Source of the DNA: an uncultured Candidatus Saccharibacteria bacterium
GTDB taxonomy: Bacteria; Patescibacteriota; SICC01
Assembly: GCA_964476895.1 (NCBI GenBank)
Contig: CAYZCS010000007.1
Coordinates: 1 to 24,000, forward strand
Reading direction: 5' to 3'
Length of the DNA: 24,000 nt
A model generated the notes under the pieces. The model was given only the letters and a program-made list of their open reading frames with translations, was not told the DNA's origin and ran no database searches. How positions within the stretch are numbered: position 1 is the first letter of the stretch; every line of letters starts with the position of its first letter. The translations under genes and the position numbers were made by a program. Below, in pieces: positions 6,368 through 11,836 of this stretch.

Positions 6368-7642
6368 TTGTCAAACCCAGCCCGCTCTGCGAAGATAATG
6401 GGCTCCTCGAAGAACCTCCTCATGACTTCCCTCATGGATTCCGAACGCGAGAACGGGTCGAGGCCATTGACGCCCGACCGGCTTCAAGAAGTGGCGGGCG
6501 GGCTGGTGGAACACGAGACGATGGAGCGGGTGCTGGCCGACACGCATTGGGACTACCAACGTCGGGATACGAGCGCCGGAACCGCATACGTGTTCGCCCG
6601 TCCGGTCTCGTTGCTCGAATCGATGCGGATCAACCCGGCGGATTACCAGAACCATCGTCACACACTGGGAATCAGCGAAACGGACGGGGAAATGCGCCTG
6701 ACCTACCTGGTGCTGCGTGACGTGCATTCGAATGAACTCGGCATGCTTCCGAGGATCGAGTCCGCGTTGCGTGGTCGCGGTCGGATCACCCGTCGTGACT
6801 TCTCGGACGACGAGCTGGCGTTCGTCGACCGCATCTGGCTGCCGAGCGCCGAGATCGGCGAAGCCCTGGGAATCAGCACCGGTCACGCAGAGGCGAAGGT
6901 CACGGACATCCTCCGCCCGCGCCGCTTGGCCAACCGAACGGAGCTGCTGACCCTCGGGCTCAAGGAGGGATTCCTGAACCCCGATCTGGAAGCATGGCGC
7001 CGTCCGGTCGGGCTGTCGCCCTTGCAAGCTTCCGTGCTGCGCCGATCACACCTTGAGATAGCGCCCATGGCCCATGAGCTAGGAATAAAGACCAAGTCCG
7101 CCAGTAACGCTCTTGCCCAGTGTTATCGGAAGACCGGGGCCCGGATTCGCAGAGAGCTGATCCTGATCGGGTTGGCCAACGGTCAGTGCTGCTTGGATGA
7201 ACTGCCGACACCGGAAATGGAACCCAAGCTCACCTCCTTAAGACAGGAGATGCTGGCTCTGGTCGACCGATCGTACGAAGCCATTGCGGAGCAGAGCGGA
7301 GATAGCAAGAGTACGATCTCGAACCGGTATGTGCGCCTGTATGAAACGCTCGGACTCTCGAACATGAACGAGCTGGTGGCGTACGCGTTCCGGGAAGGGC
7401 ACATCGACAACCGGATCGATGCCCGTTTGGCGGACGTGTTCTCGCGGCGGCAACGGCAAGTCGTCGAGCGTCTCATGGACGATAATGACGAAATCGCCGC
7501 GTCGCTCGACATCAGTAAGTCCGTGGTCGTGCATCACCTTGTCGAAGCTAAGCGCCGCGCTGAGGTCGATTCGCGGTCCGGGCTCGTTGCGTACGGGCTC
7601 CGGGCGGGACTGATCGATCCGGAAACGGCCAGGCGTGGCTAG
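6368..7642 (+). CDS. Transcriptional regulator with four tandem LuxR/GerE-type HTH modules and an N-terminal domain of unknown function
   Basis: Four units of about 60 aa (aa 145-204, 216-273, 288-346, 358-417). Each follows the pattern L/F-S/T-x-x-x-x-x-h...EIA..LGIS..TV......h..KLG..NR.ELh..h...G.h. The start is uncertain: TTG at 6368 or ATG at 6398. Confidence 0.75.
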   Translation: MSNPARSAKIMGSSKNLLMTSLMDSERENGSRPLTPDRLQEVAGGLVEHETMERVLADTHWDYQRRDTSAGTAYVFARPVSLLESMRINPADYQNHRHTLGISETDGEMRLTYLVLRDVHSNELGMLPRIESALRGRGRITRRDFSDDELAFVDRIWLPSAEIGEALGISTGHAEAKVTDILRPRRLANRTELLTLGLKEGFLNPDLEAWRRPVGLSPLQASVLRRSHLEIAPMAHELGIKTKSASNALAQCYRKTGARIRRELILIGLANGQCCLDELPTPEMEPKLTSLRQEMLALVDRSYEAIAEQSGDSKSTISNRYVRLYETLGLSNMNELVAYAFREGHIDNRIDARLADVFSRRQRQVVERLMDDNDEIAASLDISKSVVVHHLVEAKRRAEVDSRSGLVAYGLRAGLIDPETARRG

Positions 7643-8748: not shown

Positions 8749-8908
8749 GCATTCAGTGTACGTGATGGTTGACTTTTCGCATGGTTAATAGGAATATACC
8801 TAGTCGCACTTTTCCATACAGGGAGGTTCCCGGCGACAAGGCAATCGGAATGCTTTGTCCCCGGGAATCTCACAGGGAGAGCTCCGTGGAGAAAAAGGAG
8901 AAGATCGC

Positions 8909-9901
8909 ATGCGCCACGAGTATGGGTACAGACGGATTTCGACCAGACGGGTCATCGGTTGGATCGGTCTGGGTATCGGGCTGATCCTGTTGATCCTCCT
9001 GCTGTTCGCGTGGCCGTTTAAGAAGGCGCCCGCCGATCAGTGGGCGGTCAGCTACGGCGGCGGCCCGTTCGAGAGCCAGCACTACCAGGGCACGTTCGAG
9101 CCCGGCTCAAACCTCCGGTTCAACGGGTGGTTCGACAAGTGGTTCGAGTATCCGGCGACGCTTCGTTCCTACATCGTCTCGAAGCAAGGCGGTGAGGGCG
9201 ATGTGCCGGGCAGCGACTCGATCCGCGCCACCACCAAGGACCAGGTGGAGGTGGAGTTCGAGATCACCACGAACTTCAAGCTCAACACCAACCTGCTCCG
9301 GAAGTTCCATGAGCAGTTGGGGCTGAAGTTCGAGGCCTGGGAGGACGATGGCTGGAACAAGATGCTTCGGGACTCGTTCCGGCAGCAGCTTGAGAACAGC
9401 CTGCAGTCCATCGTGCGCGAGTTCGACGTCGCCGAGGTCTGGGCCAGTGAGCGAGCGCTCGAGGAGATCCAGGATCGGCTCGGAGTCGAGCTCAATGAGA
9501 AGATCACGTCGCAGCTCGGGGACGAGTACTTCTGCGGACCGACTTTCCAGCACGGGCGAGCGGTCCAGGTACCGGTCAAGGAGCAGGTCGACGGCGAGAT
9601 CGTCACAAGGATGGAGCGAACGGATTGTCCGCCGCTCCAAGTAAAGATCAAGCGTCCGACCATCCCGCAGAAGGTGAAGCGTGCCTTCGAGGCTAACCGG
9701 ACCTCCGAGATCCTGGTGGTTACCAAGGAGAACGAGATCGAGCAGCGCCGGAAGGAGCGGGAGTCGATCAAGCAGCTCCGGAACGTGCTCTCACCGCAGT
9801 ACGTACTCCTCAGGGCCATCGAGGAGGGCAAGATCGACTTCTGGGTTCTGCCCGGGAATAACGGTCTCAACCTCCAGACCCCGACGAGAGCGGCTCCATA
9901 G
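8909..9901 (+). CDS. Membrane-anchored SPFH (band 7 / prohibitin-like) domain protein
   Basis: N-terminal TM helix followed by an SPFH-like pattern (..IRATTKDQVEVEFEITTNFKL..). The ATG at 8909 is preceded by an AAGGAG Shine-Dalgarno. The family call is by eye only. Confidence 0.55.
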   Translation: MRHEYGYRRISTRRVIGWIGLGIGLILLILLLFAWPFKKAPADQWAVSYGGGPFESQHYQGTFEPGSNLRFNGWFDKWFEYPATLRSYIVSKQGGEGDVPGSDSIRATTKDQVEVEFEITTNFKLNTNLLRKFHEQLGLKFEAWEDDGWNKMLRDSFRQQLENSLQSIVREFDVAEVWASERALEEIQDRLGVELNEKITSQLGDEYFCGPTFQHGRAVQVPVKEQVDGEIVTRMERTDCPPLQVKIKRPTIPQKVKRAFEANRTSEILVVTKENEIEQRRKERESIKQLRNVLSPQYVLLRAIEEGKIDFWVLPGNNGLNLQTPTRAAP

Positions 9902-10021
9902 CTGAGCGACACTACGGCCCCATAGTCTGGCCTCTCACGAGGTGGCCTGAAACAACAGACGCCAGGGGGATTCCGGCAGGTTAATGCGAGATATCATATC
10001 TCCATTGCCTGCCGCCCCCGA

Positions 10022-10070
10022 CCCTCTCGCATAGCGACTGATGAGACCCGGGAAGTTCGGGTCGAAAGGG
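10022..10070 (+). ncRNA. Hammerhead ribozyme-like element, copy 1 (stems I and II capped, stem III open, i.e. type III topology)
   Basis: CCCUC / UCGC-AUA-GCGA (stem I) / CUGAUGA / GACCCG-GGAAGUU-CGGGUC (stem II) / GAAA / GGG. All invariant core positions are present. The predicted cleavage site is after C10026. Confidence 0.7.
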
Positions 10071-10167
10071 AAGCACGAATGCCGCGTTGGTAGAATACGG
10101 CGCTGGTATGATGTACTTGCTCGCCGTACCTTACCGCAAACAGTCAGACCCGTCGGAAGGAATGTAC

Positions 10168-10524
10168 ATGCAACGACTCTACGACAGTGACGTCATCCGT
10201 TCGATGTCGATGTACTGTGAGGATCCGCTGGTGCGGCTCATGACGCTCGCCATGGTACTGATGGGAGTCACGGTCACGGGCATACTGGTCGCCGTGACCC
10301 CCGATGCAAGCGCCTGGGGTATCCTGGCGCTCTACGTCTTCATCGGCATGCTGATCGTCGCGCCGAAGCACCTGTGGATGCTGTTCACCTACTGCGGCAC
10401 GTTGTTCACAGGGATCATGATCGAGCCACAGGGACCGTTTGTCATGGTGCTTCTGGCGCTGCTCTGCTTTGTCCTCGCGGCATTCGCCCGGAAGCGATTG
10501 CCTGATCAGCGGACCGTCACCTGA
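10168..10524 (+). CDS. Hypothetical integral membrane protein (about 4 TM)
   Basis: Hydrophobic ORF. The ATG at 10168 is preceded by GGAAGGA. The ORF track starts it at TTG 10087, so the start is uncertain. Confidence 0.5.
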   Translation: MQRLYDSDVIRSMSMYCEDPLVRLMTLAMVLMGVTVTGILVAVTPDASAWGILALYVFIGMLIVAPKHLWMLFTYCGTLFTGIMIEPQGPFVMVLLALLCFVLAAFARKRLPDQRTVT

Positions 10525-10592
10525 ACGACCGATAACGGACCTCGAACCCGCGCGCAGTGGTCCGTGTGGCTAACCAGCCATGTCGCGGGAGC

Positions 10593-10630
10593 GGCCATCA
10601 TGTACTTTAGTATCTGGTGGCCTTTTCTTT
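10593..10630 (+). terminator. Rho-independent terminator of the 4-TM protein gene
   Basis: Stem GGCCATCA (10593-10600) with TGGTGGCC (10615-10622), including one G-U pair, followed by TTTTCTTT. Confidence 0.65.
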
Positions 10631-10642
10631 ATGGTCCGGATG

Positions 10643-10671
10643 TTGATTATTTAGCTTAACTGTAGTATAAA
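10643..10671 (+). promoter_or_regulatory. Candidate sigma70-type promoter driving hammerhead copy 2 and the metzincin gene
   Basis: TTGATT (10643-10648), a 17-nt spacer, then TATAAA (10666-10671), within an AT-rich patch of an otherwise GC-rich region. Confidence 0.5.
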
Positions 10672-10702
10672 ATCAAGCTACGGAAACACCGTGACACGGT
10701 CG

Positions 10703-10751
10703 CCGTCGCGCATAGCGCCTGATGAGACCCGGGAAGATCGGGTCGAAACGG
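10703..10751 (+). ncRNA. Hammerhead ribozyme-like element, copy 2
   Basis: CCGUC / GCGC-AUA-GCGC / CUGAUGA / GACCCG-GGAAGAU-CGGGUC / GAAA / CGG. The predicted cleavage site is after C10707. It lies about 25 nt downstream of the predicted transcription start. Confidence 0.7.
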
Positions 10752-10759
10752 TATCAACA

Positions 10760-11836
10760 ATGCATAGCGAAGCCAGTCCCAATCACGATTCGCAACCCGA
10801 GTCCACGGTCCTGGACCGCATGCGGTCATCGCGGGTCGTGAAAACCGTCTTGGGTGCCGCGTGTGCGGGCGTGCTCGCGAAATGCAGTGGTCCGTCGGCA
10901 CCACCCGAAATGAACGAAGTCCGCTCACCGCGCGCGGTATTCGAACCGCCCGTTCCGGCTGCTCCCGACCTTCCGTACGTAGCGGAGAGCCGCCCGGTCG
11001 AGTACTACGGCGGCCTGTCAGCGTATCGATCCATGAGGGTCAACAGGATCGGTCGGGAACTGTTCGAAGACGCCAGGATGGCGCGCGGATTCGAGATCGA
11101 ACGGGAGATCGAACAGTGGAACCTGGACCGGATGGGATTTCTACTGGTGCCCGCCGAGCTGCGCGGCCCCCTCGAAGCGTCCGTGGACGCGGAGCTGCGG
11201 ATGGAAGAGTTCTTTCTCAGCAAGGGCCTTCCGCAATATTCCGTGATCGATTACCTGGGCTGGCGGACGAGCGCTGAGATGATCGATGAACCTTTGCCGT
11301 TACCGGAAGTCATGCACGGGCTAAGCCAGCTGGAGCTGGACTATCTGGAAAGCCTGGACCGGGAACGTGAGGCGGCGATGCTCCAGGCGGAGATCATCGC
11401 CGAGGAGATCTACGGACCCACGCCCTTGCCTGCCGATCCGGAAAAGCGGGCTCAGATTCCCACGGTTTCCGTCCGGCTGGAGGGGTCTCCGAAGGTGGAG
11501 CGGGCGGTCAGCGAGGCGCTTGAGCGGTGGCAGGAGCGCGGCTACGACCCTCCGTGCGACGGTGACATCGAGCTCTGGGGCTCCAATCGGCTGTCTCGGC
11601 CGAAAGCGACCGCCCAGGCCCCGTTGTCGCCAAGGTTCGGAGAGCCTTGCTATATCAATTTTCGGGTTGATGAGATTATGCAGAGTTCGGAAGACCATTT
11701 GGCCAACGTTTCCGAGCATGAAATCGGCCACAACTTGGGATTCTGCCACTCGAAACAGGAAGATTCCATCATGTACAGCAAGCGCGAAGAAACAGAAGGA
11801 TGCGAGGTTCCTCACCCGAGTTGGACGGTCGAGTAA
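10760..11836 (+). CDS. Metzincin (matrixin/M10-like) zinc metalloprotease, probably secreted
   Basis: HEIGHNLGFCH matches HExxHxxGxxH, and is followed by an SIMY Met-turn. A signal-peptide-like segment is present (MRSSRVVKTVLGAACAGVLA). The start is ambiguous: ATG 10760 or ATG 10820. GTG 10691 would run through the ribozyme motif. Confidence 0.75.
   Translation: MHSEASPNHDSQPESTVLDRMRSSRVVKTVLGAACAGVLAKCSGPSAPPEMNEVRSPRAVFEPPVPAAPDLPYVAESRPVEYYGGLSAYRSMRVNRIGRELFEDARMARGFEIEREIEQWNLDRMGFLLVPAELRGPLEASVDAELRMEEFFLSKGLPQYSVIDYLGWRTSAEMIDEPLPLPEVMHGLSQLELDYLESLDREREAAMLQAEIIAEEIYGPTPLPADPEKRAQIPTVSVRLEGSPKVERAVSEALERWQERGYDPPCDGDIELWGSNRLSRPKATAQAPLSPRFGEPCYINFRVDEIMQSSEDHLANVSEHEIGHNLGFCHSKQEDSIMYSKREETEGCEVPHPSWTVE

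Follow-up and report, generated by a model that had tools for sequence, protein, structure and literature searches.

A hairpin-plus-hammerhead module at gene ends in Saccharibacteria and other Patescibacteria

Type III hammerhead ribozymes (Rfam family RF00008) are found in viroid and satellite RNAs and in plant and bacterial genomes. In bacteria, gene-flanking hammerheads are known to cut polycistronic RNA in vitro (PMC3088659); the role of bacterial hammerheads has been described as an open question, and the known cases are mostly tied to phages (PMC6155905). Here we analysed a 24,000-nucleotide (nt) stretch of DNA from an uncultured Candidatus Saccharibacteria bacterium (GenBank assembly GCA_964476895.1, contig CAYZCS010000007.1, positions 1 to 24,000 of the forward strand; this whole stretch is called the window below), in which two hammerhead motifs on the same strand flank one gene, the 118-amino-acid (aa) open reading frame (ORF) at 10168-10524. 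In the clusters described by Perreault et al. in 2011 (PMC3088659; reviewed in PMC6155905), same-strand hammerheads likewise surround a single small ORF of unknown function, and the role proposed for them is likewise the processing of long transcripts into gene-length RNAs (PMC3088659). Those clusters lie mostly in prophages, near integrases, with types I, II and III mixed, whereas the family to which the window motifs belong lies beside the core genes ychF, purC, purF and the gene for PBP1A.

Self-cleavage within an untranslated region (UTR) of an mRNA alters the RNA ends, as in the glmS ribozyme and the rodent Clec2 3'-UTR hammerhead. The family described here resembles both in that changed RNA ends may alter stability or expression. 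The glmS ribozyme has another fold and depends on a metabolite, whereas no ligand-sensing domain is evident in this family, and the Clec2 hammerhead differs in being discontinuous and eukaryotic. RiboJ-type insulators (Lou et al. 2012) are reportedly engineered from the sTRSV hammerhead plus a hairpin and placed in the 5' UTR. The second window motif is similar to them: it lies approximately 30 nt past a promoter-like site and before a start codon, a hairpin is present, and cleavage would give a uniform 5'-OH leader. By contrast, the RiboJ hairpin is downstream of the ribozyme, while the hairpin of this family is upstream and the usual site of the ribozyme is after a gene and not after a promoter.

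The window motifs belong to a previously undescribed hairpin-plus-hammerhead module at gene ends that occurs across the Candidate Phyla Radiation (CPR); the ribozyme class itself is known. We found no literature report of hammerheads in Patescibacteria, Saccharibacteria, CPR or TM7, and earlier large surveys may already contain some of the sequences. Directly shown here are the identity of the motifs, their conservation and covariation, the hairpin upstream of them, and their setting among genes and terminators.

Two type III hammerhead motifs in the window

A repeat finder reported a 61-nt direct repeat in the window (10022-10082 and 10703-10763, spacing 681, identity 85%). Within it, a 49-nt unit differs between the two copies at exactly five positions, as stated in a first-pass annotation of this DNA, and the differences amount to two compensatory pairs plus one loop base. 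C10024 and G10068 of copy 1 are replaced by G10705 and C10749 in copy 2 (pair 16.2-15.2, C-G to G-C), U10027 and A10037 are replaced by G10708 and C10718 (pair 1.1-2.1, U-A to G-C), and U10056 is replaced by A10737 in loop II. The CUGAUGA...GAAA core is the same in both copies.

The two units present the same elements in the same order: the 5' strand of stem III, U16.1, C17, the stem I hairpin, CUGAUGA, the stem II hairpin, GAAA and the 3' strand of stem III. Hammerhead 1 (10022..10070, + strand) was read from the sequence and supported by the family covariance model, its fold and an orthologue in a sister genome. Stem III is formed by 10022-10025 with 10067-10070, stem I by 10027-10030 with 10034-10037 (loop AUA) and stem II by 10045-10050 with 10058-10063 (loop GGAAGUU); the core is CUGAUGA at 10038-10044 and GAAA at 10064-10067, and cleavage is predicted after C10026, in the triplet CUC (10024-10026). 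Hammerhead 2 (10703..10751, + strand), supported by a sub-threshold Rfam match, the family model and its own orthologue, has stem III at 10703-10706 with 10748-10751 (plus a G10702-U10752 wobble), stem I at 10708-10711 with 10715-10718, CUGAUGA at 10719-10725, stem II at 10726-10731 with 10739-10744 and GAAA at 10745-10748, with predicted cleavage after C10707, in the triplet GUC (10705-10707). According to sequence and folds, loops close stems I and II and the 5' and 3' ends exit via stem III, which is the type III topology. Both CUC and GUC agree with the cleavage triplet N-U-H (H being any base except G).

The minimum-energy fold of hammerhead 1 was the three-way junction, alone as well as in a 148-nt context. 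The family covariance model scored hammerheads 1 and 2 at 77.3 and 77.5 bits respectively (E about 1e-23). The pattern CTGATGA-N(6-30)-GAAA was matched five times in the window vs. 0.22 expected by chance, and none of 100 shuffles reached five; three of the five matches are unstructured chance occurrences away from the hammerheads. The first-pass annotation had read the repeats as type III hammerhead motifs, and every sequence-level feature that defines such motifs was found. On this sequence evidence, both repeats are very probably genuine hammerhead ribozymes.

At curated thresholds, Rfam detected no hammerhead in the window, the sole match being a tRNA gene (553-626, - strand, 71.6 bits). 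At relaxed thresholds, RF00008 matched hammerhead 2 with 33.9 bits (E 2.6e-5) vs. a gathering score of 48.5 bits, which is an annotation cut-off and not a biochemical criterion, while hammerhead 1 was unreported even at E up to 10. The gathering score was reached by none of the approximately 25 copies scored, including those in 20 related loci. The family shares with RF00008 the CUGANGA and GAAA motifs, the A15.1-U16.1 and G10.1-C11.1 pairs, the N-U-H triplet, the three-helix junction and the open stem III, and its loop I (c-NUA-g) resembles the RF00008 consensus loop c-uUa-g. Unlike RF00008, it combines a 4-bp stem I with a conserved loop II (GGNRGNU) and a near-constant upstream hairpin, and its setting is chromosomal, in Patescibacteria.

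Distribution and covariation of the family

Pattern scans of genome and metagenome collections yielded about 40 further copies, 34 of them distinct. The genome scan covered 185,579 species genomes with a pattern in which the core and two pairs of stem I were fixed. The 102 loci returned fell into two clearly separate groups, structured and chance matches: in 19 matches, from 17 loci, stem I was perfect, stem II had eight pairs and stem III had three or more, while the remaining matches were essentially unpaired. All of the structured matches were in metagenome-assembled genomes (MAGs) of Patescibacteria, Saccharibacteria or WWE3. The 638-kb LejiaD contig had five pattern matches, to which a sixth copy with the triplet CUU was later added; the 'CAM bin17' MAG had five copies, one Saccharibacteria MAG three, and three other Saccharibacteria MAGs and one WWE3 MAG single copies. 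In the metagenome scan, whose pattern left stem I free and whose contigs carry no taxon label, 22 of 42 matches were structured, on contigs with GC contents of 0.36-0.67. Two scans of viral contigs returned unstructured chance matches only and no valid hammerhead copy, and the family covariance model added no copies to the pattern matches in the window or in 38 loci. The motifs form a multi-copy hammerhead family that, where the organism is named, is confined to Patescibacteria (CPR), and most of its members are solitary. The shared features are a 4-bp stem I with an N-U-A triloop, a 6-bp stem II with a GGNRGNU loop and a short open stem III, and the cleavage triplets are CUC, GUC, UUC and CUU.

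A second gene-flanking pair of same-strand hammerheads, 2.1 kb apart, was observed in the sister genome described below (L099, minus strand, oriented positions 723 and 2856), with a CUU triplet in one hammerhead and a terminator after the other. In one metagenome contig (L125, 2273-2316) a hammerhead lies 154 nt past a DDE transposase gene (PF13701), and it is identical in three further metagenome contigs (L126, L127 and L140), which suggests a copy carried by an insertion sequence.

The 34 distinct sequences were aligned without gaps. The core is invariant in 34/34 except at N7 (U or C), and all 13 essential core bases are unchanged. N7 is the hammerhead core position that tolerates any base. 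Columns 7/49 (A15.1-U16.1) are UA and columns 27/45 (G10.1-C11.1) are GC in all 34. The two pairs that differ between the window copies vary widely across the relatives: pair 16.2-15.2 is CG in 19, GC in 13 and UA in 2, and pair 1.1-2.1 is UA in 15, GC in 9, AU in 7 and CG in 3. The view that the window differences are compensatory and leave the core untouched is backed by these many pair types. Imposing the hammerhead structure on the alignment paired 90.8% of the cells, a value that is partly circular for stems I and II, which the selection filter demanded intact. Double changes were found at 14 of 17 pairs, all three stems covary, and the top mutual-information column pairs are exactly the helical pairs. 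The covariation score was 0.592 compared to 0.186 in shuffled alignments (0 of 500 reached 0.592) and 0.06-0.15 in slid controls. Stem III played no part in selection, yet its three inner pairs form in 33-34 of the 34 sequences, and each of them shows 10-15 double changes. The three-way junction is the minimum-energy fold in about two thirds of the family sequences. In orthologous loci the hammerhead is the best-conserved segment (78-98% identity vs. 50-79% in the flanks).

The loop positions that never vary are A15 and G16 (loop I) and G33, G34, G37 and U39 (loop II); the metagenome pattern, unlike the one used on genomes, partly imposed the loop II bases. U14 of loop I and A35 of loop II are associated (counts 28, 2, 1 and 3; Fisher p 0.006, uncorrected for phylogeny), and one sequence has G14 with C35. 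This covariation may reflect a loop-loop contact.

A DNA-level repeat, either of the REP or MITE type or a recombination site, with an incidental likeness to hammerheads, would account for several copies per genome, for contigs that break within the repeat (L066 and L079), for the copy type that accompanies a DDE transposase, and for homology between the window and its sister genome that stops at the 5' edges of both copies (see below). However, the 13 essential core bases never vary, whereas the stems change in a compensatory manner across GC contents of 0.36-0.67, strand orientation tracks the upstream gene, and neither terminal inverted repeats nor target duplications were seen, so that we regard this explanation as highly improbable. 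The possibility of a generic repeat raised in the first-pass annotation was half right: the copies do form a repeat family, but one whose stems are strongly constrained. The homologues collected by pattern scans and covariance model maintain the helices by compensatory change, the only core change being at the permissive N7.

Gene context, upstream hairpins and the sister genome

Most copies have a same-strand gene 50-180 nt upstream. The upstream genes are mutually unrelated and encode SPFH, PurC, PurF, AAA ATPase, sugar transferase, DDE transposase, and membrane and unknown proteins. An intrinsic terminator, consisting of a GC-rich hairpin with a T-run, lies only a few nt past the ribozyme in at least eight copies. 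Downstream of other copies there is a convergent gene, or the next gene starts 20-65 nt away; the PBP1A gene begins 28 nt after the ribozyme in L031. A stable hairpin directly precedes the ribozyme in nearly all copies; in 26 of 31 distinct contexts, the gap between its end and the three bases immediately before position 16.2 is 0-4 nt. Throughout the family, the 60 nt upstream had a mean folding z of -3.4 vs. -0.4 in controls (Mann-Whitney p 8e-10).

The near-invariant UAG of loop I was also considered as the stop codon of upstream genes, and this is still plausible only in the L031/L091 pair, where a 137-aa ORF (L031 4921-5367, and in L091) enters a hammerhead that has no upstream hairpin and stops at the loop I UAG; cleavage there would remove its stop codon. 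Long frames ending at this UAG in L109 and L141 are artefacts, the real genes, which have homologues, being in other frames, and the same idea is unsupported in L099.

A sister genome was recognised through the gene after hammerhead 2, which encodes a matrixin-type zinc metalloprotease (10760..11836, + strand; HEIGHNLGFCH motif, Pfam PF00413) and whose ATG at 10760 is 8 nt after the hammerhead. The protease had only two relatives in a large protein collection, P0001 (100% identical, 358 aa) and P0002 (83% identical, 310 aa, annotated from a later start); exact-sequence look-ups of the YchF and protease proteins encoded in the window gave no match. P0002 comes from a 'Patescibacteria group bacterium' MAG, whose contig L001 is syntenic with the window and has both hammerheads at matching places. 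The orthologue of hammerhead 1 (L001 8016-8064) differs at one loop I base and by U to C at N7, and that of hammerhead 2 (L001 9794-9842) at one loop I base, one loop II base and by C-G to U-G in stem II. Both copies have orthologues in L001; therefore, the two paralogues had already acquired their compensatory differences before these genomes diverged.

The homology between the window and L001 ends exactly at the 5' edge of each hammerhead (10022 and 10697-10700 in the window, 8016 and 9788 in L001). The genes upstream of the breaks differ, SPFH in the window vs. 220-aa and 180-aa ORFs in L001, and L001 also has a 230-aa ORF before hammerhead 2 and a 105-aa ORF after the membrane-protein gene. 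The hammerhead repeats may act as recombination or insertion points.

In the window, hammerhead 1 is preceded by an upstream element at 9916..10021 (+ strand), called class B and aligned with L087, L006, L066 and L079, that comprises a small hairpin (9929-9947) and a long hairpin, P0 (9965-10019), ending 2 nt before stem III of hammerhead 1. The fold of 9927-10074 (z -3.7) places the hairpins and the hammerhead side by side in this 148-nt context. Before hammerhead 2, the sequence and folds indicate a short equivalent of P0 (10688..10700, + strand, 5 bp, loop GAC), and at the orthologous position in L001 there is a 10-bp hairpin. Copies of the W1 type share one of two conserved two-hairpin elements of approximately 105 nt, class B (window 9916-10021) or class A (L001 7925-8015). 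Class A and B elements were also observed beside near-identical hammerheads in L006, L041, L062, L066, L079, L087 and L089.

The functional product might be a small RNA, either the upstream two-hairpin element, with its 3' end set by the ribozyme, or the ribozyme body plus terminator. The class A and B elements are 86-94% identical between genomes compared to 72-79% for neighbouring coding DNA, they occur only beside hammerheads among the loci examined, and several copies form a compact hairpin-hammerhead-terminator unit. However, no promoter is evident before the elements, which begin right after stop codons, neither class has an Rfam match, and across the wider family the upstream hairpins are alike in shape and not in sequence. 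We consider a small RNA product unlikely.

The inferred order in the window, all on the + strand, begins with an SPFH/Band-7 gene (8855..9901, Pfam PF01145, E 4.6e-13, start codon uncertain), followed by the class B hairpins, hammerhead 1, TGGTATGAT and the small membrane-protein gene (10168..10524, 118 aa, no family match) that lies between the two hammerheads. The ATG at 10168 (MQRLYDSDVIRSM), approximately 98 nt past hammerhead 1, is the conserved membrane-protein start in L001. TGGTATGAT, at 10104-10112 between hammerhead 1 and this gene, is also conserved in L001 and may be an extended -10 promoter of the membrane-protein gene; in that case hammerhead 1 would be part of the upstream transcript. 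Beyond the membrane-protein gene come an intrinsic-terminator-like hairpin and T-run (10593..10631; 8 bp, 10593-10600 with 10615-10622; conserved in L001) and a promoter-like TTGATT-N17-TATAAA (10643..10671; TTGATA-N17-TATAAA in L001), then the short hairpin, hammerhead 2 and the protease gene. A simple sigma-70 and terminator scanner called neither the 10593-10631 nor the 10643-10671 site, the former because its loop is 14 nt and the latter because its second hexamer ends in A. The promoter-like site would set a transcription start approximately 30 nt before the hammerhead 2 cleavage site. In L001 the 230-aa ORF sits between the promoter-like site and hammerhead 2, which makes hammerhead 2 intercistronic there.

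The two window copies also share an AATGC that begins 7 nt after the last stem III base, placing ATGs at 10079 and 10760, and the first-pass annotation had proposed that ribozyme folding is coupled to an initiation codon at this fixed distance. The supporting details were accurate: the ATG of copy 2 is a possible protease start and is conserved with its spacing in the sister genome, and that of copy 1 opens only ATGCCGCGTTGGTAG, a four-codon ORF (MPRW-stop). Coupling of folding or cleavage to initiation at an AUG 8 nt downstream of stem III would also fit the prediction that cleavage would leave the 8-nt spacer and the 3' strand of stem III unpaired. Nevertheless, the fixed-distance AUG, present in both window copies, is absent from the hammerhead 1 orthologue in L001 (8016-8064), which also has no mini-ORF, and from all other family members. 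Many copies precede terminators or convergent genes and not start codons, folding predicted no pairing of the AUG region with the ribozyme, the sister protease is annotated from a later start, and an alternative ATG at 10820 (MRSSR...) resembles a signal-peptide start. The proposed coupling fails on this comparative evidence and must be considered quite improbable.

Two same-strand hammerheads around a short unit also recall retrozymes and viroid-like elements, in which case the two ribozymes would excise a 681-nt RNA that circularises, and 5'-OH and cyclic-phosphate ends would suit ligation. However, the compensatory 16.2-15.2 change would give the hammerhead re-formed at the junction a G-G mismatch, with G16.2 coming from copy 2 and G15.2 from copy 1. 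Moreover, the copies are separated by a terminator-like hairpin and a promoter-like site, the spacing of 681 nt becomes 1778 nt in L001 with extra genes, and the family consists mostly of solitary copies with no valid ones in viral contigs. Excision of a circular RNA is hardly credible on these grounds.

The window neighbours are ychF, ribosomal protein genes, the genes for EF-P and a tRNA-binding protein, and a XerC/D-like gene, with synteny kept between the two genomes. Among ten local window proteins, four matched PHROGs families, namely a lipoprotein family (SPFH), integrase families (XerC/D-like) and a sigma-factor family (LuxR-type), and none matched a structural, packaging or lysis family. 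The core-gene neighbours, the conserved synteny and the chance-only matches in viral contigs give no support to a prophage location of the window hammerheads. A 424-aa protein with a C-terminal GerE/LuxR helix-turn-helix (HTH) is encoded at 6368-7642 (+ strand) and lies beside ychF in L001 too; further weaker HTH-like matches occur along its length, as if it were made of repeated HTH modules.

Proposed role in mRNA processing

The architecture and distribution described above lead us to favour a cis-acting module that processes or insulates mRNA at gene 3' ends and between cistrons by means of genuine type III hammerheads; we consider this reading probable. That its function is specifically to form mRNA ends or to separate cistrons we judge evenly balanced. 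From the motifs and their context we infer cleavage, the extent of the transcription units and whatever influence there may be on expression or RNA stability.

When transcribed, the ribozyme would cut after C17, which is C10026 in copy 1 and C10707 in copy 2. The RNA upstream of the cut would then end in a hairpin and a tail of approximately 7 nt with a 2',3'-cyclic phosphate, and the downstream RNA would begin with a 5'-OH and the compact ribozyme body. Hammerhead 1 would part the SPFH-gene transcript from whatever comes after, and hammerhead 2 would strip a leader of approximately 30 nt from the protease mRNA. Because stem III is short and open, the products should separate readily, and the adjoining hairpin might stack on this stem or protect the ribozyme against mRNA sequence lying upstream. 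Consequences for stability and translation would be those expected from knowledge of 5'-end-dependent RNases and 3' hairpins. The processing would need no protein.

Several points weigh against this reading. Self-cleavage is predicted for all members from their sequences, and the Rfam scores are under the gathering threshold. The 4-bp stem I is very short, and fast cleavage at cellular Mg2+ needs a loop-loop contact that is only hinted at. The paired fraction of stems I and II partly reflects the selection filter, as stated above. The window promoter and terminator are consensus readings accompanied by conservation in L001, and the placement of a ribozyme between a protective hairpin and a terminator is unexplained by any measurement.

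The module differs from known cases in its core chromosomal CPR location and in its fixed architecture of gene, hairpin, hammerhead, and terminator or next gene, and it is conserved at orthologous 3' untranslated regions across otherwise very divergent genomes. Rfam thresholds in current use overlook a whole hammerhead lineage. If the repeats also act as recombination points, the synteny breaks at their 5' edges would be explained. The hairpin and the 49-nt hammerhead are compact natural parts for RNA engineering, and ribozyme-defined mRNA ends are directly testable in cultivable Saccharibacteria. More tentatively, Patescibacteria might use the hairpin plus minimal hammerhead cassette as a general, protein-free signal for mRNA 3' ends and cistron separation on housekeeping transcripts of the chromosome. 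If this were true, the cassette would replace work usually done by endoribonucleases in very small genomes, and it would be the first concrete cellular function for bacterial chromosomal hammerheads.

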